Counted from the stretch's first letter, positions 251-10,872 are shown. The stretch is 10,872 nt of DNA from a bacterium (GCA_965233585.1 CBDDTI010000495.1:1-10872), one strand, 5' to 3'. Numbers and translations are program-made. The notes: generated by a model from the sequence alone, not told the origin.

Positions 251-428
251 CTTCCACTAACTGAACAACTCCGGTCTGTCCCTTTTCACAAGAATTACGA
301 ATGTTACCATCGCTGGCTTGATAGCCGACAGTGTCATCTGATTCACCAGCTGCTTCATGCAAGTTTTGTTTCGTTCGTACAACGCCAACAACTAACTTTG
401 CCGATGTGCCAAGGTCCTTAATCAAAAC
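251..428 (-). CDS. Exon: SPRY module 2 part b (VLIKDLGTSAKLVVGVVRTKQNLHEAAGESDDTVGYQASDGNIRNSCEKGQTGVVQLVE)
   Basis: Acceptor gttgacag; donor AAG|GTAAAA; 28/59 identical residues with exon 2383-2560. Confidence 0.9.
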
Positions 429-3400
429 CTGTCAACAGCAAAAAAACAGCGTCGTATAGTGCTATGAAGGAGTCAGATGCGATAGAAAGTTAGAAACATC
501 TATTTAGAGTAGATGAGCTGAAAATACATTCGGATGACTAATAGAGAAACCTTGTGGTAAAGTGGAAGTTTTTGTAGACACTTCCAACACCCCTTGGGGA
601 CCCACGCTTGTCTCACTTTCTTCAGAACCAACCAACAATTTGGCTACGAGGATTAAAGCGTGTTGCTTCACTCACCTCAAGTTTTGGAAAGCTTTCAGAG
701 AAAGGCTGTCTATATCTTGCACCATGGAAATCAAACTTGCAGCCTTCAGTGCAAAGGTCGCGACCAGCATAGGTAAGCAAACAGCCATCGATCTGTATGC
801 CGGCGCTATACCAGGCCTAAAAGGTTCCAAGGAAAAAGCTCATTTTTTGCCGAACATAACTGAAATAGTCTCATTATAGGTGGCGATATTTTGTTAGCTT
901 CGACTTTTGACTTTTATAACTAATTAGCATAACAAATGACAATTGAAAATTGGGCCTGAACAATTCTGGCTTAAAAAAAAAAAGAGCAAAAATTATTTCC
1001 TCATTACGTAGCTTGTACTTTTCATTAGTATCTTGTTCCAGGGTTATTTCTTTAACATGATCTAGTAGTTTCGTAGAGATGAATGAATCAATTGCTGCAA
1101 CTGTAAACAAATAACAACGTCAAGGTTCCTGAAGACTTAGTCACGTGCATGTAACAATTTCAATTACATGTCCTAGTCCACTTACCTTTGGACCTGTAGT
1201 GGCAAAAACGGCAGTGCTGCTCTGATTAGAAAAGACAATGGTTTCACAAATGTCAGCAATCCTTTGGTTTAACGTTTGAAACTGAAGATCATTAGATTTT
1301 TTCAGCTTTGCAACTGCATCAACACGATCGTCTGTGACACCAGAACAAACCTAATGAATTTTAAAAATGATTGAGAATAAAAAAGGATTGACGGGATAAT
1401 TTCTGTAACGAAATGAACAAGATTCCTTGTCCCTTCTATGCTTAGCATATTTATGGACGCACTATCATTTTGTAAATGTATGTCTATTCGATTCTTCTCT
1501 ACTTGTGAAAGTCAAGATTTTGAACTCAGGGAAGCTGTCTACCCACTTTTCCTCCTCCATTCCCCCAAATCATCACCATACATCTTAACTTGGATTTACC
1601 AAAACACTACTGAGGTTAACATTTCTACGACTATTATGTCAGTAACTATGGTTACTTGTAACACCTTAGCTTGGTAATTATTTCAGTGTATTCCAAAATA
1701 TTGGCGAAATATTGCGTTTACCTTAGCAAGAACACGAATGCCTTTATGACACATTCCAATGAAAGGATAAAGCTCTTTCTCCGGCCTTTCTTTATATTTC
1801 ATCTTAGCCTCATGAATCAATGTTCCATTTAAGGTGAAAAGAATTGGAACTCGGCTGTCTTCGATATTGTTAAAGTCGACAAGACAAACGATTAGATCGC
1901 CTCGATACGCCATTTTTTCTGCAATAACAGTAAGAAAGTTAAATCAGTAATGCTGTTATGACAAAGATCAGTTAAAGAAAGTAAATACACGGAAGCTCTT
2001 TACTGATCCTATAAAGGAAGGTAATAGTATAGAAAGTAAATTTTCTATCCTGTAAATATGTCCGAAACAAAACCCACCGTCCTTACCCAAGACTACAGAG
2101 AATGCAGTTTGGGCTATTAATTCAGCTGCATGGACGAGACAGGTAGCAGTTTACCATCTAGCTCTTTTGCATAATATAACTTTATCTTGCCGGAATAACT
2201 TACGGAAACAATTATCTGAGGTTTATTCAGAGAAACCTGTTACTGTGAGAGGAAAACGTTGCGACTCGAAACTGAGACGTTCTTGTTTTTTGGAGGCAAT
2301 TTGATAGCTAGATGTTGTGGGGACTATAGCATTCCAATTTCGCTGCCGTAGGAATTATTATATTCTAAAGTAAAACTGCTACCTTCCACTGGTTGAGCAC
2401 TTTGTGCATCGTTCTTATCACAAGCGTTAAGGAGGTGCCCGTTTGAAGTATAATAGCCAACACTGTCATTACATTTGCCGGCCAACTCGTGTGATCTGTG
2501 CTTGGCCCTAACCACTCCAACAACCAGCTCTCGCCTCCTTCCATCTTCCTGGATCAAAACCTTTCAGGAAAAAAAGCCTTTAGTTAGCTTTATATTGAAC
2601 GGAGACATAACAAGTGAATATCTTCTACACTTGGCTTTTCTATATGCCTTTAAACGTCATACTACAAACTGATGTTCGACGTTTAAAAAACTGAACAAAA
2701 TGTAAACTTCATATTAAGTTGCATCTTCATGCTGGGTTAGTTAACGGACATCTGGAATTACTAACTACTTAATAACCGAGAGTGAGGTCGTTACGGGAAA
2801 ATCTCAAACTGAGACCTTGCCGTATTGACCGAGTGATAGCGAGGTCAATACGGTAGGCCGAGGTTTCAGATTTTACCTTACCGACCGAACCGTCGAGGAG
2901 GTTGTTAAGTTGTTTAGTATATGGCAAAAGCATAGATGTTTTTTTTTTTTTAATTACTCTTTGCTTTCTTTTTGCAAGTCCGTATTACGGGAAAATAATG
3001 CCCTGCAATTCAATGACAATTAGCCAATCAGAGCGTGCGTTATATCGCCTACAAACACAAGCCATATAATAAAAGTGAAATAAGGTAAGCTCTTTACAAG
3101 GAAAAAATGAGGTACATGCAGGCCTTTTTTTCTTATATTACATGGGCACTGTAGATTTCTTCGACAGTTTTACTTTAATTAATCATGTACAATTTTGTTG
3201 AAATATTGCTGTAGCTTGGGAGACCTCGCAAAAGTATTCCCACTACCTGATCTTTTATCCTGAACATGCACCACACTATTTTCTCAATACTCCGCCTATT
3301 AATTTGGCAGCGTAAAATGATGAGATAAAGAATAAGTTATTAGAATTACCTCAAGTTTAGGGAATTTTTCAGAGAAAGGCAGTTTATATCTAGCTCCATG

Positions 3401-6400
3401 GAAATTCTGTGCCCCGGCCTTGAACCTGCACATTGTGCAAAGGGCTTGACCAACGTAGGTAAATAAACAACCTTCAATTTGTATTCCGGAACTGATCCAT
3501 GCCTAAAGAAAAAACTATCAGTTAAGGCCTAATTTATGATTTGTTGATCAATCGATGGATCGATCAGTTTGAGTGATTAAATCAACGACGGAAAGACTTT
3601 TTTGTGGAATGAAGATTTTATACCCTTCCCATTTTTGGTTTCAAAAGTAAACTTATACATTCTCCTAATGATTTACTAGAATTCTTCGATGGCGAAATCC
3701 TTTTCTCCTTGTGATAAAATGCTATGAGAATAAATGGAGTTGGAGTTAAGCGGTTTAATATGCCGAAAAGCATATGGCTCTTCTTTAACTACGCTGAAAA
3801 ATTGGCCCAATAACTCACGCCGCTTTTTCATCTAATCAGATGTAACACCAAAACGAATTGCGACTCACTCTCACTCAATCATACTCACTTCAGCACCAAC
3901 AGGAGCCATTTTCGTCATGTGCGATTGATTGAAGAACACTTTCCGGGCAATTTGATTGCACATTTCACGGTTCCTGCGTGTCTCGGTTAGCATGTTACTG
4001 ATCTTGCTTTCATCTTCACAGTAAACGTCACAAAGAAATGAGATTAGTATACAAAAGTTTTAAGAAATTTTAGTTAAATGTTGTGTATATTGTATTGCAC
4101 GTCCCATTCATAAACAAATTGTGCTGAAATGTGATCAAAGGGCGTTGAAGATATAATAATAGAAATTAGGGAGCTTGAAGCTGCAAGATTACAATGATAC
4201 TATTTAAAAATAAAGTCATTTGTTACCTGTTAAAGGGAACGAAGATCCATGTGTGGCAAAGTAAGTAGCTTTTAAGTTATCAAGAATACTCTCTAAATTT
4301 GTATCCTGAGAGCAAGAAATGAAAAAATGAAATAAAAGAATCATTTACCTTAAGTATCACAAATCTTCTACTGATGACATATCTTTTGATAGCGAATTCT
4401 AAATGCCAATAATAATTAAAGGGGCTACGTTGGAGAGCGACACGATCTGGAGTTTTTAGGAGCCATATTTCCTTTTTTCTCAGCTTGAGGTTAATACTTC
4501 TCTGGTGGTGTGTTATAGGCCCTTCAAGAAAGTATCTATTGTTAAATATACGTAGTTTGTCAGTTAATGCCAATTTGTTTTAATAGGGAGACAGGAACTG
4601 AGCATTTACATCGCTTACCTGGTATAACAACTCTGTACATACATTTTAACTTTTAAGCTGGTTTAACCAGTACTAACCTTCGTTGAACTCACTTCGTTGG
4701 TAAGTAATAGGGGATAATCCTCTTGGCACCATTTTTGGATTGCTCACGAGCGTTGCTTCTTTTCCAAACACTAGTAGAGTTCAACAACGACTTATTCAAG
4801 AGGAATTCGAATTCGTCCCATCGAGGAAATGACACGCTATATATTTGGCTATTGACCAACATCTTTTCTAGGATAACTGTATATACTCCCTCTAGCTCTC
4901 GTTTAAATCTACTGAAAGTAGAATAAGCTACTGGGCGTCAAAGGGACACTTCTACCTGATTCAAGCCTCACCATACCTTCTCCTCACCAGCTTGGTCCTC
5001 CCCAGATGTCTTTCCGGAGTCAGGTATTTGACTGTAGCAATTTCGAGAACCGTATTTGCGGCGACAAAATCCGATGCATTGAATTAACAACATTCCAAGC
5101 TGGGATAACAAGTTCAAAGGAACAGGAATAGGATGGTAGTTGCTGAACGTCCTAATAATGATAGCCTTTCTGAAGGACCATTCTATCAGCGAGTTGCTCT
5201 GCAAAACATTGAACATTCAGTGCGTGTAAGATGTCGGTATAATTGTATTCATTAAGAATATTTCAAAACGTAGAGAAATCGTAGCTCGCAGATATCATCA
5301 TTCATGTTCGCAAAAATATTTTATATTTTAGCTGTCATAAGTATCGTGCTACCAGAAAAGACCTATCCTTCTCTTTGTTTAATTGTATTATCATATACCA
5401 TTGGCAACAAAGGAAATTTGCTAAATCAATTCGACAATGTTGTCAGTGGAGTCATTAGAATAGACTTTGGTTAGATTGGCAAACGGATTATCCACAGAAG
5501 ATTATGATTTACCCAAGATACTTGAATTCTACTCAAGAGAGGCTTGTAGAGACATAATCAGTTAAAAGAAAAGAACGAAAATGCATGAAGGTTGTCTTGA
5601 CCACTAGCAGAAGTTTCACTGCTGCTTATTGTGCTGGCGTGGCGGATACACCGACTCTTTTATGCTCTACTGGTAACTGTATCGAGTTATTCTCGAAAAC
5701 AATGAAAAATATTGATACAAAGCCTTTAACATACCTCTACTCGTTCATAAGTGCTAGAAAGAACAGCGATCATCATATTGACTAGAAGAATGAGCGCCAA
5801 TATGATGAAGATACCGTAAAGTGCCTGTGCAATGTAGTCTGCTGGAGAATCATGAGTGGTAAAGGGCCCCACATCTGCAATGCCTAGAAGCGTCCACACG
5901 AGATGCTGAACAATCTCCCAAAAACTGCAACCACAGAGTAAACTTTAATTATGGAGAAGATAGTATCGTTTCTGGTACGAGATGATAATCGGCTATAAAA
6001 CTTCATATACTATATATGAAGAATATATCTTAAAACATCGCGAGCGGCACCATACAACTTTCTTTTGTATTTAGCAACATCGACTTTGTTCATTACTTAA
6101 TATAACTACCGGTTAGGAAGTTTATTGGACAGTGGCTTGGATAGGTGTTTGGTTGGTTGGTTGGCTGGTTGACGGTTGGTAGTTTGGAGGGTGATAGATC
6201 TAGATTAGTGATTTCGGTTAGATGGGTGGTTGTTGGGTTGATTAGTTGCATGGTTAGTGTGTTGGTAAGGCGTTTGCTGGGTTGGTGGAGGAGTTTGTTA
6301 AATTGCTTGTTATTGCTGTGTTGGAGGGTTGTTAGTTGGTCGGTTGGTTGCCTTGTCGCCGGCTGGCTAATTGGTTAGTCAGTGGGTAGGTGAGCAGGTG

Positions 6401-9009
6401 GCTGGCTGGGTGGATAGGCAGGTTGCTGGGTTCCTGGCTTAGTGGGTGGTTTGAATGGTTTGCTTCCTGGTCGCTTGATTAGTTGGCTAGTTGGTTGATT
6501 GTTTGGCAATTTGTGTGATCGATCAGTCAGTACGGCAGCTCTGCTTATGTACGCAACATTTAATACAACTTACCAAGAGAATCCAGCGCCACTGCATATC
6601 CTTTGGGGAAAAAGGAGCAAAGATCAATGGTATTAAACCGATACGCTATAGTAAAAGATTGCACCAAGTTTAATGAACTTATCTGCTAAGACGCTTGTTA
6701 AATTTCAGGTGTTTTGTTATTGTTGTGGAAAGAAAATATAAATCAAGCGATCTCTGCATTACTGACTTTATTTTTAAGTGGTATTTATTTAGGCTTGTTG
6801 CGATGGACTAACTTCATGCTACAGAAACCGGGATAAGCACTGGCCTGATGGGCCATTTGGCTTGTATGCAGACTTACCATCCAGGCTTCTAACTTCCACG
6901 GTCTGATTCTCTTAATAAGAAATATTCTGTACGCAACATCGGTTTAAAATTCAGTTCCATTGAAAGACTTTCAAAAATAGGCTACACTTTTTATGTATCT
7001 ATTGTCCACAATAAATTGCTTTCGCCCCTGACTGAGGGGTCGAGGCATTCCGCATTTTTTTAGATTAGAATGCTGCTTCTTTCCTTTTTTTCCAGGGAAT
7101 TCAAAATACTCCTAATATAAAACGATTTAGAGAAACATTTCAGCAAGAAAATTAACGATACTAAAAGGACATGACATTTCGACGACTTCGTCTCATCATT
7201 GTCAAATAAATAATTAATTAATAAATAAATTATATGCCTTTCCGTTACGTATTATTTATTCATGACAATGATGACATGAAATCGTCGAAACGTCATGTTT
7301 TTTTAGTATCGTTAATTTTCTTGCCGAAATACAGAATACTCTTTTGTTAAAAAGGTGACCAACCGCTAGGCATGTACACAAACTTTCCTGTAATTACCGC
7401 TTGGTAATCTTACATCTTTATCTGTGAATGATTCAAATAATTACTTGGACCGAAAAAAGAAAAATTCCTCGATACTAATTTCATAGGGTAATCTCATTCC
7501 ATTCACACAAGATTCGCCGTATTGTAAAGCAATTAGCAGGTTTACTTTCGTTAAAAAAGATCTAACTGATACTGATACTGATAAAATGAGATAAAACTTT
7601 CCAACCCTTCCGATCGTAAAACTCCTTCGTCATCACCAGTGAAAGAGTGCCCAGCAAGTAAGACTTTGGTCATCGCTAACGAACATGCTAATATCCAGAC
7701 CGCAAACTGGACAAATATGACGGCCACATCTTCAACAATACGGACAAGAGCAATATGGGTAATGCCTGTCCCTTTATTAGCTTCCAAAAGACTTCCGAAC
7801 ACCCGCACAGTCAAGATGGTAGCGTTGAGGCCATACAAGTATTGCGCAATAACTAGTTGTCGGTTTCCAGGTACATATGTGCAAATTCCCCACGTGATCA
7901 TGCGCAATATAAATGTCACAAAGTAGATAAAAAGGCTGATCATGTCCAGTACATTCCAACGGTCACTAGAAGATAAAAATGATCAGAAAAGACAGCTGCG
8001 AAGGTCCCTTCTCTCGTCTTACCGAGTCCTATCATCAGTCACGACGGTAAATCCTGATTTTATTGCGATGACTTGGTTTTAAAGCCAACAATTGTTGGTT
8101 TTCAGTGTCACACCATTCAAAATAGATCGAAATAAAATCAAAACCGTTCAATAGATAAGTCCAAAATCTAAGAAAACAAAGGTAAATATACAAAGCTCTC
8201 ACCAAGATTCAGGTCACAGTAATTTTTCTAAGATACGCGAAGAAATGTTTTACCCAAATCTATAGAGATTTGTATGGAGACGCCATGCTAGAGCCCATCC
8301 GGATGGGCTCCAACATGGCGGCCGGAAATTAACAGAAATATTCGTCACTGAGTTTTGCTACAAAAACGTGAATTTATCCCTCGAAGAACTCAAGAACATT
8401 AAAATCTACCTTTTGTAATGTTTGAACTGTTCAGATGGCTAAATGTCCCGAAATAGTCACTTTGTTAACCAACTTGACAGCTCTCTTAGCCGTCATGTAA
8501 ATGCCACGTTACGCAAAAAGCATAAAAATCCAAGCGAAGTCTGTCACAAAACCAAGGACCTAATCTGAGCGTATATTTGTATGAATACTACAACATAAAA
8601 GTAAATCTCAGGAAGATCACTAGTTTTCTAGTTTGAATTTTAGTGACGTCATGTGAAAACTCCCAATATTTACAAACATTAGGTGCTATAACATTTTTCA
8701 TTTACTGCACGCACCTAAGATATGTATGAAGCATATGCGATGCAACCGATTTATATCTCTGATGTGCTGGCTTCGTTTCCTGATGATGCGTGGAGGCTGA
8801 CAATTCCTTGGGAGCACTCTTGTAGCACTGATCCAGTTCCACAGCTAAACGGCCGACAAAGAATACCAGAATAGACCATTCCACCATTGTAAAAGTAATT
8901 GTCGACGGCGAAAGACATATGGCAGCATGAAGGCCAAGGAGGAAAAAGTAGCTTAAGGTGTCTCTCGCAAAAATGAAGTAAGGCGTGACGAAGTATTCAA
9001 GATACAACT
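251..9009 (-). CDS. Partial multi-exon gene: TRPC-like transient receptor potential channel with two tandem C-terminal SPRY-type modules. Exons: 8715-9009, 7606-7965, 5735-5924, 4977-5198, 4227-4305, 3889-4013, 3350-3502, 2383-2560, 1722-1918, 1186-1350, 676-816, 251-428
   Basis: Manual splicing at GT-AG sites gives a continuous phase-consistent ORF of 2283 nt. TRP hallmarks: YLSDRWNVLD (S3), HLVWTLLG (pore helix), LVNMMIAVLSSTYERV (S6), EWSFRK (TRP box), HPIPVPLNLL (proline-rich box). SPRY-like motifs follow: LVVGVV, SVGY, GDLIVC, FTLNG, LYPFIG. Confidence 0.9.
676..816 (-). CDS. Exon: SPRY module 2 part a (AWYSAGIQIDGCLLTYAGRDLCTEGCKFDFHGARYRQPFSESFPKLE)
   Basis: Acceptor ccttttag; donor GAG|GTGAGT; paralog of exon 3350-3502. 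Confidence 0.9.
1186..1350 (-). CDS. Exon: helical linker before SPRY module 2 (VCSGVTDDRVDAVAKLKKSNDLQFQTLNQRIADICETIVFSNQSSTAVFATTGPK)
   Basis: Acceptor ttcattag at 1352-1351; consensus donor AAG|GTAAGT at 1185; 165 nt open, phase 0/0. Confidence 0.85.
1722..1918 (-). CDS. Exon: SPRY module 1 part c (EKMAYRGDLIVCLVDFNNIEDSRVPILFTLNGTLIHEAKMKYKERPEKELYPFIGMCHKGIRVLAK)
   Basis: Acceptor gttattgcag; donor AAG|GTAAAC; matches SPRY consensus elements GD-x-I-x-C, FT-x-NG and LYP. Confidence 0.9.
2383..2560 (-). CDS. Exon: SPRY module 1 part b (VLIQEDGRRRELVVGVVRAKHRSHELAGKCNDSVGYYTSNGHLLNACDKNDAQSAQPVE)
   Basis: Acceptor tttttttcctgaaag; donor GTAGCA at 2382; 178 nt, same length and phases as exon 251-428. 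Confidence 0.9.
2767..3073 (-). mobile_element. Non-autonomous interspersed repeat with internal hairpin, possibly Crypton-derived
   Basis: Imperfect inverted repeat 2798-2874 with a perfect 11-bp core (CCGTATTGACC 2820-2830 / GGTCAATACGG 2843-2853). The minus-strand end reads TTTATTATATGG...CTGATTGG, like the start of the element at 9661. Resembles recalled anthozoan repeats. Confidence 0.55.
3350..3502 (-). CDS. Exon: SPRY module 1 part a (AWISSGIQIEGCLFTYVGQALCTMCRFKAGAQNFHGARYKLPFSEKFPKLE)
   Basis: Acceptor ttttttctttag; donor GAG|GTAATT; phase 0/0; 31 identical residues with exon 676-816. Confidence 0.9.
3785..3872. repeat. Degenerate fragment of a common anthozoan interspersed repeat
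   Basis: ACTCACGCCGCTTTTTCATCTAATCAGATGTAACACCAAAACGAATTGCGACTC resembles a recalled coral repeat; no structural evidence within the window. Confidence 0.3.
3889..4013 (-). CDS. Exon: helical linker before SPRY module 1 (DESKISNMLTETRRNREMCNQIARKVFFNQSHMTKMAPVGAE)
   Basis: AAG-type acceptor at 4015-4014; donor GTGAGT at 3888; phase 1 in, phase 0 out; similar to exon 1186-1350. Confidence 0.8.
4227..4305 (-). CDS. Exon: helical C-terminal segment (DTNLESILDNLKATYFATHGSSFPLT)
   Basis: Strong acceptor tttcttgctctcag at 4307-4306; donor CAG|GTAACA at 4226; phase 0 in, phase 1 out; open frame. Confidence 0.8.
4977..5198 (-). CDS. TRP exon: TRP domain (SNSLIEWSFRKAIIIRTFSNYHPIPVPLNLLSQ...EEK)
   Basis: Acceptor ttttgcag at 5200-5199, phase 0. 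Donor AAG|GTATGG at 4976 chosen for phase match; alternative donors exist at 4987 and 4971. Confidence 0.85.
5735..5924 (-). CDS. TRP exon: pore helix, filter and S6 (FWEIVQHLVWTLLGIADVGPFTTHDSPADYIAQALYGIFIILALILLVNMMIAVLSSTYERVE)
   Basis: Acceptor gttgcag at 5926-5925; donor GTATGT at 5734; typical TRP S6 motif NMMIA. Missing from the ORF track; translated by hand. Confidence 0.93.
6135..6530. repeat. Degenerate tetranucleotide microsatellite / low-complexity tract (TGGT, TGGC, TAGT units)
   Basis: Directly visible GGTTGGTTGGTTGGCTGGTT-type periodicity with strong G+T strand skew. Confidence 0.9.
6799..6878 (+). mobile_element. 3' fragment of a SINE
   Basis: TGCGATGGACTA...CTTCATGCTACAGAAACCGGGATAAGC...GGCCTGATGGGCCA...GTATGCAGACTTACC matches my recollection of a coral SINE tail; not database-verified. 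Confidence 0.5.
7137..7330. repeat. Long inverted repeat (foldback), arms 7137-7213 and 7252-7330
   Basis: 7137-7204 versus the reverse complement of 7263-7330: 61/68 matches. A further AATAAATAA/TTATTTATT pair follows a 2-nt bulge; AT-rich 38-nt spacer. Confidence 0.93.
7606..7965 (-). CDS. TRP exon: S3, S4, S4-S5 linker, S5 (SDRWNVLDMISLFIYF...ILTVRVFGSLLEANKGTGITHIALVRIVEDVAVIF...RSEG)
   Basis: Acceptor tttatcttctag at 7967-7966 completes the YLS-DRWNVLD motif. Donor GTTGGA at 7605 is weak but its phase (2) matches the next exon. Confidence 0.9.
8091..8667. mobile_element. MITE-like non-autonomous DNA transposon remnant
   Basis: Degenerate terminal inverted repeats ATTGnnnGTTTTCA (8091-8104) / TGAAAACnnnCAAT (8654-8667); internal 40-bp palindrome 8281-8320; resembles a recalled coral repeat family. 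Confidence 0.55.
8715..9009 (-). CDS. TRP exon: pre-S1, S1, S2 and S2-S3 linker (ELYLEYFVTPYFIFARDTLSYFFLLGLH...VEWSILVFFVGRLAVELDQC...HTYL)
   Basis: Acceptor ttttag at 9011-9010; donor GTGCGT at 8714; phase 1 in, phase 2 out; two hydrophobic helices; lies within ORF 8702..9019. Confidence 0.9.
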
Positions 9010-9128
9010 CTAAAACCATATGAGAAAAAAGAGCGATAAATGGACCTACCTACCTTTCAGGAAATGACGCTTTTCGATACTGGAGCATTTGTTCTATTTT
9101 ATTTGAATCTAGCGTTAATTCTCTGATA

Positions 9129-9219
9129 CCCCCAGCCCCCCAATTCAATGTTGTGTAAGCCCTGTAGTCTGTTCAGTCGAAGAAATAGAAAAATCAACAT
9201 TGTTTTGGGGAGAAGGGGG
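9129..9219. repeat. Short inverted repeat (MITE-like relic)
   Basis: 9129-9153 versus the reverse complement of 9195-9219: 20/25 matches, including CAATGTTG/CAACATTG. Confidence 0.5.
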
Positions 9220-9294
9220 CAATATGTGACTAAAACGCCCAAAAATCGAATTTTACTACCACGTGTCTCGACACTTTTGTCGCCCATTGTACCT

Positions 9295-9444
9295 ATAGAC
9301 CATTTCCGATTTGCCTTTTGCCTCTGGAATTGTATTTCGCCAACATGTTCAATTTCTTACAAATAAAACTAATTTTCATCCGGAAAGTTTCGTACAAGGA
9401 CTTTTTCTAAAACAGAGGCGCCAGGGAACTCGGAGAAAGCATAT
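9295..9444. mobile_element. Degenerate ~150-bp MITE
   Basis: The ends ATAGACCATTTCCGATTTGCCTTTTGCCTCTG and CAGAGGCGCCAGGGAACTCGGAGAAAGCATAT are imperfect inverted repeats; resembles a recalled coral MITE family. Confidence 0.5.
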
Positions 9445-9469
9445 TATATTTCATGAACAACATTTCAAA

Positions 9470-9543
9470 CAGCAAGCGATCAGAACGGAACTCTGCTCTC
9501 CGGACTTCAAGTCCAGCGCCCTAACCATTCTTCCACGCTGCCT
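9470..9543 (-). mobile_element. tRNA-derived SINE head (tRNA-Ser(TGA)-like), degenerate
   Basis: Minus strand reads GGCAGCGTGGAAGAATGGTTAGGGCGCTGGACTTGAAGTCCGG: A-box-like D arm and anticodon arm CTGGA-CTTGAAG-TCCGG. The T arm and acceptor stem are degraded. Confidence 0.65.
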
Positions 9544-9692
9544 TAGTTATGAATATGAAGATGTTCTTTTTTGGTCAATACTGGAAGTATGTCACTGATG
9601 GCATTTCATGGATATGAATATTTATGAATGCACAACTGTTTAATTTTAAAAATAAGATCAATTATTATTTATTCAACATATTTCCCCGTTTC

Positions 9693-9784
9693 TGATTGGT
9701 GAAAACCACAGGAATAATTAACCTTAACCAGCTGCTGTTGACCAAATTTGGAAAGAATTTTGTCATATTGAACCAATGACGTCA
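9693..9784. promoter_or_regulatory. Putative transposon promoter motifs: reverse CCAAT (9695-9699), CCAAT (9773-9777) overlapping a CRE palindrome TGACGTCA (9777-9784)
   Basis: Motifs seen directly 100-190 bp upstream of the Crypton ATG; function is inferred only. Confidence 0.35.
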
Positions 9785-9879
9785 AAAGTGCAGCCCGCTG
9801 CCGACTATTGAACCATTGACCGAGAAAACCTGGGGACGAGGCTGTGCTATTTTTGGTGAGCAGAAAAACAAAGAGCGAA

Positions 9880-10275
9880 ATGGCTGCAAGTAGGTTTACA
9901 AGTTTCAGCGAAGAAAATATTACCCAGTTACTTAATGATAAAGACAGTGAGAATACCAAAAAGTCGACGAAACAACATCTTTTGATTTTTGAGTCTTAAC
10001 TCACCTCAAGGAGAAAAACACAGAAATGGAGTTCGATACGATACGAGAAAACAAAATTAAAATGGACAGATGTGTTTTGTGGAGACACTTCAAACAACAA
10101 AATGTAAGCATTACAAAGGATGGGGAATTCGAGTCAACGAAGCCAACCGAGTTTATGAAGCACAGTGCGTAGAGGTGAAGCAGCAAAGGACTGCGAAAAC
10201 TGAACACAAACCTCCATTTGCTGACGGAGGCATTGAGAAATTGTATCGATGCGGTATCATTATTCAATACTGAAT
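9880..10275 (+). pseudogene. Crypton recombinase pseudogene, 5' part (MAASRFTSFSEENITQLLNDKDSENTKKSTKQHLLIFES* ... NEANRVYEAQCVEVKQQRTAKTEHKPPFADGGIEKLYRCG)
   Basis: ATG at 9880, stop at 9997-9999, then frameshifts. The SRF...SENTKKST start and the EHKPP...IEKLY segment resemble Crypton/KIAA1958/ZMYM-related proteins. Confidence 0.75.
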
Positions 10276-10683
10276 CACAGGCTCCCAAGCTCAAAATACG
10301 TGGTGTATGACAGCTTGTGTATACAAGTGGAGAATTGTATAGGAAACTGTCACCGATCGTAAAAACAATTGTAAATTGTGTAAATACACGTAAATAACTA
10401 TTGCCTTTGAATTAAAGTTTTCCTGCCTCAAAATGTGTCGCAAACTTTTAGTGAAGTTGTTTGAAACCGTTACTCCAGTAACGGTTTCAAATAACTTCAG
10501 AATGGCTTTAAAATTGGCACACAATTTTGCAACACATTCGAGGCATGAAAACTTTCTTTCAAATGAGATAGCTATTTACATGTATTTATACAATATTTTT
10601 TTTACGATCGGTGATTTTCCCATACAATTCTTTATATTCGCAAGCTGTCATACACCACGTATTTTGAGCTTGGGGAGCCTGTG
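10276..10683. mobile_element. 408-bp palindromic foldback MITE with CACAGG termini, nested in the Crypton ORF
   Basis: The outer 42 bp of the two arms are identical except for one extra C. Pairing continues to a 2-nt centre at 10475-10476. Flanks TGAAT/TGAAA form an imperfect 5-bp TSD, and the Crypton reading frame resumes after the element. Confidence 0.92.
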
Positions 10684-10872
10684 TGAAATCCCACTCTCTA
10701 TAAAACAAGGTTTTCTTTGCAATAAAGTTATTTTTCTGTTGCCGTGTTTGGTAAAATCTTCGTTAGATGAAAAAGACTAACCTAAAAGTCAACTCGCAAG
10801 GCAAACGCTGTGTTGTGAAAACAAACTATGAGCTAACCAAAAAAACACAGGACACTCGACGTTCAAGTGCAA
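10684..10872 (+). pseudogene. Crypton recombinase pseudogene, continuation (L*NKVFFAIKLFFCCRVW*NLR*MKKTNLKVNSQGKRCVVKTNYELTKKHRTLDVQVQ)
   Basis: One frame with three stops (10701, 10752, 10764). Degenerate LQNKVFF...CRRG-ENLR (catalytic Arg region) and ELTKNHR (catalytic Lys region) motifs. Confidence 0.75.

Follow-up and report, generated by a model that had tools for sequence, protein, structure and literature searches.

TRPM2, with its NUDT9H domain, and TRPM6 and TRPM7, with an alpha-kinase, share a design in which a group-1 transient receptor potential (TRP) core is extended by an extra folded domain at the cytosolic C-terminus, and work on these channels has revealed how a signal in the cytosol is passed to the pore. 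Subunits of TRP channels assemble as tetramers, their C-termini lying in the cytosol. The ryanodine receptor, a tetrameric cation channel with an unrelated channel core, carries cytosolic SPRY domains (SPRY1-3) within its own chain, and the SPRY domains of RanBP9 and of SPSB proteins bind short peptide motifs through their loops. We know of no characterised TRPC with a SPRY C-terminus. The stretch considered here (GCA_965233585.1 CBDDTI010000495.1:1-10872, called the window, 10,872 nucleotides in full) probably carries one gene for an anthozoan TRPC-like channel with a tandem SPRY tail as a putative docking site; relative to TRPM2, TRPM6 and TRPM7, the added domain is a SPRY interaction module and not a nucleotide-binding or enzymatic one.

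Of the gene, the minus strand of the window carries 12 exons, all with GT-AG introns and consistent phases; they encode S1 to S6 with the pore, then the TRP box (EWSFRKA) and finally two SPRY modules, and about 770 codons of spliced frame contain neither a stop nor a frameshift. A sequence-only reading of the window had described a single phase-consistent spliced reading frame leading from TRP S1-S6 and the TRP box into SPRY modules, and exon mapping bears this out. The junctions it placed at 4977/4305, 4227/4013 and 3889/3502 are each exact GT-AG with matching phases, and all of its motifs are present (LVVGVV and SVGY/TVGY in 2560-2383 and 428-251; GDLIVC, FTLNG and LYPFIG in 1918-1722). The exons it named stand, but its model was incomplete, a 165-nt exon at 1350-1186 between the SPRY modules having been overlooked. 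The exons are listed below; percent identities are to the RefSeq protein XP_078357382.1 (P0166, 1204 aa) of the coral Oculina patagonica, and L005 is one of five loci (L002-L006) obtained by scanning metagenome contigs with exon K.

Exon A, 8715..9009, minus strand: S1-S2; ends with two bases of a split codon, donor tag/GTGCGT.
Exon B, 7579..7965, minus strand: S3-S5 and the start of the pore loop; acceptor ctag/T.
Exon C, 5735..5924, minus strand: pore helix, filter and S6; Pfam Ion_trans E 2.9e-5, profile positions 186-236.
Exon D, 4977..5198, minus strand: TRP box EWSFRKA, TRP helix and proline-rich post-TRP segment; phase 0-0.
Exon E, 4227..4305, minus strand: helical linker; 76.7% identical to residues 728-757.
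Exon F, 3889..4013, minus strand: second helical linker, ending in phase 0; 83% identical to residues 758-804.
Exon G, 3350..3502, minus strand: first third of SPRY module 1; the window and L005 both have it intact.
Exon H, 2383..2560, minus strand: middle third of SPRY module 1 (LVVGVV, SVGY); Pfam SPRY E 0.045, profile positions 13-52.
Exon I, 1722..1918, minus strand: last third of SPRY module 1 (GDLIVC, FTLNG, LYPFIG); Pfam SPRY E 0.096, positions 65-108.
Exon T, 1186..1350, minus strand: 55-codon (165-nt) helical linker between the SPRY modules; phase 0-0.
Exon J, 676..816, minus strand: first third of SPRY module 2; matches residues 982-1045.
Exon K, 251..428, minus strand: middle third of SPRY module 2; donor AAG/gtaaaa; 69.8% identical to residues 1030-1092.

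Every exon aligns, in order, to the 841-aa and 1204-aa proteins of O. patagonica, with per-exon E values of 1e-9 to 1e-53, and window exons also align to 10 further relatives (exon D to 11 of 11 relatives tested); the agreement is therefore not due to chance. Identities for exons not given above are 75.5% for A (residues 370-467), 81.9% for B (468-583), 80.6% for C (596-657) and 75.7% for I (857-925). Two boundaries are ambiguous: exon A, whose reading frame is open over 9049-8702, may begin at the acceptor at 9009 or at 9045, in the same phase, and exon B has in-phase GT ends at 7606, 7579, 7573 or 7567. Pfam scores of single exons are sub-threshold throughout, with no match at all for A, D, E, F, G, J or K when scanned alone, and the domain calls hence rest on full-length relatives. 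The gene is truncated at both contig ends, so that the window holds roughly the 3' two-thirds of one channel gene. Past base 1 come the third exon of SPRY module 2 and then the tail; both are visible in the Oculina protein, the third exon also in L002 (4006-4197) and L006 (631-822). At the other end, exons upstream of S1, encoding the N-terminal part or a VWA domain, were sought in 9050-10872 and none was found.

Exon T deserves separate description. Its splice sites are a pyrimidine-rich acceptor (tag/G) and a consensus donor (AAG/gtaagt), it matches residues 925-980 of XP_078357382.1, or 920-982 in the alignment with E 2.5e-13, and it is retained in all three metagenome loci that cover it (L002, L004 and L005), where every indel is a multiple of three. 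Its counterpart in an AlphaFold2 model of the Oculina tail is a helix (125-150), and the exon shares homology with the tail segment that ends the Oculina protein. A stop-bearing tail exon was sought between SPRY 1 and SPRY 2; exon T stands there and contains no stop. A candidate origin of exon T as a decayed copy of exon F (weak tblastn match, E 0.98) was rejected, as T matches the Oculina inter-SPRY linker and final tail.

The nearest protein to the window is Oculina KAL9984536.1 (P0001, 841 aa), with 82% identity across exon B; exons A to G follow one another in it in window order, and the frame then changes inside exon G. Three models are in fact found at this one Oculina locus: KAL9984536.1 for the channel, KAL9984537.1 (P0167, 394 aa) for the SPRY part, and XP_078357382.1, which includes both and is about 80% identical to the window protein. 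The order in XP_078357382.1 is VWA, S1-S6, TRP box, E, F, H, I, T, J, K, the third module-2 exon, and a helical tail with the stop codon; only exon G is skipped. KAL9984537.1 begins inside exon H and not at a start codon, and exons G and H offer no independent start. Since the downstream model starts mid-exon and the upstream model runs out of frame into exon G, the division of the Oculina locus follows the frameshift in exon G and not a gene boundary.

The same architecture recurs in other anthozoans. A HMMER search with KAL9984536.1 against 1.84 billion representatives returned 1038 matches at E <= 0.001, and 30 of the longer ones were scanned with Pfam at cut-offs of 25 bits for Ion_trans and 26.3 bits for SPRY (PF00622). 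Both domains exceed these values in three of the 30, from Stylophora (P0005), Montipora (P0006) and Desmophyllum (P0007); in 4 of 9 further proteins, these being cluster mates and including Stylophora P0155 and P0156, Montipora P0158 and Desmophyllum P0159; and in Porites evermanni P0171 (one of three in that scan). SPRY scores of the relatives are 27.6-46.4 bits. In Nematostella the SPRY match is weak (P0014; 19.5-19.6 bits in the models of this sea anemone, below the cut-off), and the RefSeq model P0185 reads laminin-G-like domain, Ion_trans, weak SPRY and coiled coil. Three proteins without a Pfam SPRY match (P0066, P0012 and P0031) nevertheless match SPRY unit 1 of the window, at E 5e-12, 4e-15 and 4e-10, respectively. 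The first of these, P0066, is a 486-aa unbroken open reading frame on a 1580-nt Logan contig, passing from the pore through TRP box and linker to a SPRY-like region and a coiled coil. The equivalent stretch of the window is interrupted by seven introns between exons C and T, and for this reason we infer that the Logan contig is transcript-derived. The sequence-only reading had mentioned TRP plus SPRY models in automated coral annotations, and such models are indeed seen in several anthozoans; a search of the Atlas recovered only the cnidarian cluster again. The architecture is very probably real; it is conserved, uncharacterised and already represented among public automated annotations. To these the window contributes an intact copy of exon G, support for exon T between the SPRY modules, and data on coding constraint. 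At the N-terminal side, a VWA domain lies between a hydrophobic pre-S1 segment and S1 in Oculina (P0001/P0166 residues 182-341) and Stylophora (P0156 residues 236-388), and is present in 65% of a 112-member cnidarian Atlas cluster; Nematostella members have laminin-G-like or pentaxin-like N-terminal domains in its place. The channel family seems to collect interaction domains at both ends.

Identification of the channel core draws on sequence and on modelled structure. Exons B (Pfam Ion_trans E 0.018, profile positions 66-151) and C cover complementary parts of the profile, each alone below the cut-off, and XP_078357382.1 scores 33.7 bits against the cut-off of 25. The TRP box EWSFRKA, at the start of exon D directly after S6, resembles the TRPC consensus EWKFAR; W288 is the sole invariant column in a 33-sequence alignment, and in the AlphaFold2 model of Stylophora P0005 a single helix (244-300) runs without a break from S6 into the TRP helix. 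A PDB sequence search with Desmophyllum P0007 gave TRPC4 (E 1.7e-17) and TRPC5 (1.7e-16), then a Nematostella TRPM2-like chain (1.6e-12), making TRPM2 the second-best solved sequence match. By structure, residues 1-330 of Stylophora P0005 match TRPM2, TRPC5, TRPC4, TRPM3 and TRPM4 equally (Z about 19-20); TRPC4 and TRPC5 (7b0s, 9g50) have the same six-transmembrane, pore-helix and TRP-helix fold, at Z 19.4-19.7 over about 265-278 aligned residues. These alignments to TRPC and TRPM end near residue 335 of the Stylophora model, where the predicted local distance difference test (pLDDT) is 45-59. Exon E has its counterpart there in helix 329-353, and one idea is that exons E and F are candidates for the TRPC rib and pole helices. 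A cysteine pair of the S5-pore loop (about 7640-7567 and 5924), found in Oculina, Stylophora and Desmophyllum, is absent from the window protein and from a Porites relative.

Differences from TRPC4 and TRPC5 are several. The window itself is without the channel N-terminus, and the Oculina orthologs (P0001, P0166) have no Pfam match to TRP_2 (PF08344) or ankyrin at E <= 0.1, carrying VWA, while Stylophora P0156 has none at E <= 1; a weak TRP_2 hint (E 0.04-0.05) appears only in SPRY-less Acropora members. The C-terminus is SPRY. Beyond the anthozoan family, the search of representatives reached choanoflagellate proteins and TRP_2-bearing TRPC proteins at 23-28% identity. A quick maximum-likelihood tree of 554 columns and 26 rows, chosen from more than 150 matches, places the 12 rows of the anthozoan family in one clade and the six TRP_2-bearing TRPCs in a separate clade, each with a Shimodaira-Hasegawa-like approximate likelihood ratio test (SH-aLRT) value of 100; the branching among these two clades and the choanoflagellate TRPs is an open polytomy. 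Within an eight-row scleractinian group (100), the closest partner of the window is Oculina (100). On these sequence comparisons, an anthozoan-specific, TRPC-like channel would be a fair description, and not a canonical TRPC. The earlier designation of the channel as TRPC-like is thus apt in that TRPC4/5 are nearest by sequence, but it does not extend to canonical TRPC, given the missing TRP_2/ankyrin match, the VWA in its stead and the family's own anthozoan clade. Anthozoan-specific TRPC groups have been reported in a preprint in which neither SPRY nor VWA occurs (10.1101/2023.09.14.557824).

That the tail holds true SPRY folds is predicted from models of relatives (Oculina and Stylophora), which were modelled in place of the window protein itself. 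The SPRY identity given by the sequence-only reading agrees with the Pfam result for the Oculina tail KAL9984537.1 (36.1 bits, in two stretches) and with the best structural match, human SPRYD3. The spliced SPRY units of the window match the tails of relatives at E 1e-116 and 3e-58 in a database of 184 sequences. In the AlphaFold2 model of the Oculina tail (mean pLDDT 68), the complete SPRY is at 80-93, and Foldseek with this model lists 2yyo (SPRYD3) first, at E 5.6e-12 and TMt 0.83, then RanBP9/10, SPSB2, DDX1, Ash2L and HERC1. In the model of Stylophora P0005 (mean pLDDT 72), S1-S6 are followed by two helices of low confidence that correspond to exons E and F, then by a SPRY sandwich and, at the end, one more helix; residues 404-578 of this model align to 2yyo over 158 of 160 residues with Z 22.1, a root-mean-square deviation of 2.2 Å and 30% identity. 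A PDB search with the SPRY part of Desmophyllum P0007 (residues 363-464) likewise returned human SPRYD3 2yyo (E 4.3e-12), followed by RanBP9 and RanBP10. The SPRY domains of SPRYD3 and of RanBP9/RanBP10 (5ji7, 5jia, 5jiu) are thus the closest match to the tail in both fold and sequence. They are of the SPRY-only type; no Pfam PRY family appeared in any domain scan and the nearest structures are SPRY-only, no comparison aimed at PRY having been made. SPRYD3 and RanBP9/10 are soluble proteins, whereas here SPRY forms the C-terminal part of a membrane channel, in tandem, each copy followed by a helix. Ryanodine receptor SPRY chains are not among the matches listed in either fold search.

The two SPRY units of the window are 55% identical as proteins. 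At the DNA level only exons G and J (72% identical) and a short stretch of H and K can be aligned between the units, and the introns are not alignable. Unit 1 of the window is closest to unit 1 of Oculina and unit 2 to unit 2, so the duplication is older than the split of the window species and Oculina; and as exon T is homologous to the final Oculina tail, the duplicated block consists of SPRY plus helix. The SPRY-plus-helix repeat would thus go back to an old event in which a block of exons, phase 0-0 at its ends, was duplicated in tandem.

The metagenome loci allow the constraint on this coding sequence to be examined. Exon order is kept in all of them: F-G-H-I-T-J-K in L005, H-I-T-J-K in L002 and L004, J-K in L003, and K in L006. 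Scanning of genome contigs with exon K gave no relative, and a word-index search with exon I gave three short ENA fragments only. In L002 and L006 the third module-2 exon ends in phase 0 with a consensus donor, and the gene therefore continues beyond it. This exon is about 460 bp downstream of exon K in these two loci; it was sought in the 1.9 kb downstream of exon K in L005 (4407-6283) and was not detectable there. All 19 exon copies read in frame are open, exon K of L006, which is cut by the contig end, being left out of this and the substitution counts. Donors are GT in 20 of 20 exon copies and acceptors AG in 18 of 19. The sole non-AG acceptor, that of exon T in L002 (L002:2003), reads AA while the near-identical L004 has AG; candidate causes are polymorphism, sequencing error and loss of the splice site. 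Indels relative to L005 are multiples of three in 6 of 6 cases in exons and in 13 of 62 in introns; relative to L002 the figures are 8 of 10 (the other two are a compensating pair in exon H) and 9 of 41.

The Nei-Gojobori ratio of non-synonymous to synonymous substitution rates (dN/dS) against L005 is 0.43 over 372 codons, where the metagenome loci may be orthologs from sister species or recent paralogs. By exon the ratios are 0.18 for F (87.8% identical), 0.29 for G (86% amino acid identity), 0.30 for I, 0.20 for J, 0.62 for T, 0.50 for H and 1.27 for K. Against L002 and L004 the overall ratio is 0.66-0.68, with 1.04 for exon H and 1.27-1.91 for exon K; across comparisons exon I falls at 0.25-0.30 and exon J at 0.20-0.41. 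The middle SPRY exons, H and K, thus stand at about 0.5-1.9 and the first and last SPRY exons at 0.2-0.4. Non-synonymous differences number 35.3 in exons H and K together and 27.5 in exons F, G, I and J; synonymous ones number 13.7 and 25.5, respectively. Fisher's test on these small counts gives p 0.046. Replacements in H and K concentrate just past the exon start and near the GY motif. Sharing among the loci is mosaic: L002 equals L004 in exons H, I and T, yet the two have many differing sites in K; exon K of L005 equals that of L003 and L004, though unit 1 of L005 differs; and exon K of L006 resembles that of L002. The pattern suggests alleles, paralogs or gene conversion.

Several observations weigh against a single fused gene under selection, and they are best considered with the explanations that they favor. 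Single window exons reach only 13-14 bits for Pfam SPRY (14.3 and 13.2), and hmmscan on full-length XP_078357382.1 lists no SPRY, the 36.1 bits being obtained from its C-terminal 394 residues alone. Most relatives carry one SPRY only, all others examined having a single SPRY followed by a helix or coiled coil, and the placement of both SPRY blocks in one mRNA would rest on one RefSeq (Gnomon) model together with phase and splice-site logic. The single SPRY of the other relatives would suit one gene in which the SPRY blocks are alternative cassettes used in different isoforms, each protein having a single SPRY: the block G-H-I-T is phase 0-0, skipping of either block preserves the frame, and RefSeq lists isoforms for Stylophora, Montipora and Nematostella members. 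Such an arrangement is unlikely, however, because XP_078357382.1, the only model that covers both blocks, includes both; both blocks are under constraint; and exon T has a consensus donor and lacks the stop of the homologous Oculina tail, as expected if read-through into the second block is normal.

Less probable again, at slightly under one chance in ten, is that two adjacent same-strand genes, a TRP gene ending after the TRP-box or linker exons and a SPRYD3-like gene downstream, were fused by read-through of the predictor. GenBank does annotate two genes at the Oculina locus (ACROYT_G006841 and ACROYT_G006842), the Oculina assembly shows a frame change in exon G that may be real or an assembly error, unspliced exon D meets a stop after two codons, and the many phase-0 junctions would allow alternative joins. 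A coral gene, g1393, annotated as SPRYD3-like and similar to TRPC4, and a possible member of the family, is described in a preprint as neuron-enriched and reduced under heat, and the authors thought its model possibly chimeric or misassembled (10.64898/2026.10.05.756843). The Oculina split, however, tracks the exon-G frameshift, and the downstream model begins within exon H without a start codon there. Channel and SPRY parts are joined in this order also in paralogs of only 30-48% identity, in five scleractinian genera and Nematostella, and also on the intron-less 1580-nt contig. Exons E and F, which contain no stop and are conserved (77-88% amino acid identity), bridge the two parts. From exon order across species, the constraint data and the intron-less contig it follows that the fusion of TRP and SPRY is very probably genuine, despite the split or chimeric-flagged models, and we consider it highly likely that the fused architecture is real.

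That the window copy is a decaying or non-functional paralog, its open frames recent leftovers, is the least probable of these explanations: dN/dS is about 1 or above in exons H and K and 0.66-0.68 overall against L002 and L004, exon and intron identities to L005 are nearly alike (89.1% and 86.3%), the pore-loop cysteine pair is missing, and the family is large with many database fragments, but the spliced frame of about 770 codons is free of stops and frameshifts with every splice site canonical, exon indels against L005 all preserve the frame, dN/dS is 0.18-0.30 in exons F, G, I and J, and the Porites relative likewise lacks the cysteines.

For the single fused channel gene, a working arrangement can be proposed that goes beyond the observed exon structure, homology, SPRY fold, conserved fusion and coding constraint. 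After S6 and the TRP helix, the cytosolic tail would comprise two short helices (exons E and F), SPRY 1, the helical linker of exon T and SPRY 2, followed, as in the Oculina ortholog, by a last helix and the stop codon. The channel would assemble as a tetramer, with four copies of each SPRY beneath the cytoplasmic face; the sequence-only reading had proposed eight SPRY modules per tetramer, with possible gating or scaffolding by protein ligands. In this position the SPRY domains could bind a cytosolic partner, either a protein or a short peptide motif, that modulates the channel or determines its location, and the faster-evolving middle SPRY exon may contribute to the recognition surface. The tail is taken as a docking site because SPRY domains of the RanBP9/SPSB type bind peptides and because the structural matches of the Oculina tail include peptide complexes (5jiu, 3emw). 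By this analogy, a role of the tail in docking a cytosolic partner that localises or modulates the channel is plausible, with somewhat less than an even chance of being right. A bolder proposal, which we regard as speculative and doubtful, is that these proteins form a private anthozoan TRPC-like class with its own receptor modules, SPRY at the C-terminus and VWA or laminin-G-like domains at the N-terminus, in which a protein or peptide bound by the SPRY loops directly gates or positions the channel, and change in exons H and K reflects diversifying selection on partner recognition. If this were true, each subunit in the Oculina-like lineage would have two specificities by virtue of its tandem SPRY; and should g1393 belong to the family, neuronal Ca2+ entry would be connected through this class with the response to heat stress.

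The literature, insofar as its texts were available, yielded neither a description nor a test of a TRP channel that has SPRY within its own chain, and no functional study, in keeping with the sequence-only reading, which knew of none. With SPRY docking built into a TRPC-like channel, the theme set by TRPM2, TRPM6 and TRPM7 would take a new form, one conserved in reef corals and a sea anemone. The present analysis also settles a question of annotation, the fusion being argued as genuine where models elsewhere are split or flagged as chimeric.

The contig that carries the gene is the whole window, one of 747 contigs in a 12-Mb assembly that is labelled a prokaryote genome and rated 92.5% complete with 2.09% contamination. 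Its architecture is eukaryotic, with short open reading frames interrupted by GT-AG introns; GC content along the window is 32-45%, and the top protein matches are to stony corals. The contig is therefore scleractinian coral nuclear DNA, host contamination binned into a bacterial metagenome-assembled genome (MAG), and eukaryotic host contigs are thus flagged inside a MAG rated about 2% contaminated. On a second contig of the same assembly (C503:3125-5226) are exons for the N-terminal part of a channel paralog, with identities of 48% and 38% to residues 49-171 of Oculina XP_078357382.1.

Elsewhere in the window, 10 other open reading frames (in 9050-10872 and the introns) gave no credible Pfam family, and TRF found no tandem repeats and Rfam no match. 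The intron between exons B and C includes, at 6140-6500, a G/T-rich, degenerate GGTT-like stretch of low complexity, with a GC skew of +0.49 and an AT skew of -0.36 and no TRF array. Upstream of exon A, at 10284-10674, lie nested inverted repeats of 43 nt at 93% and 58 nt at 83% complementarity; the open reading frames around them have no family match, and the repeats may be a small foldback element.

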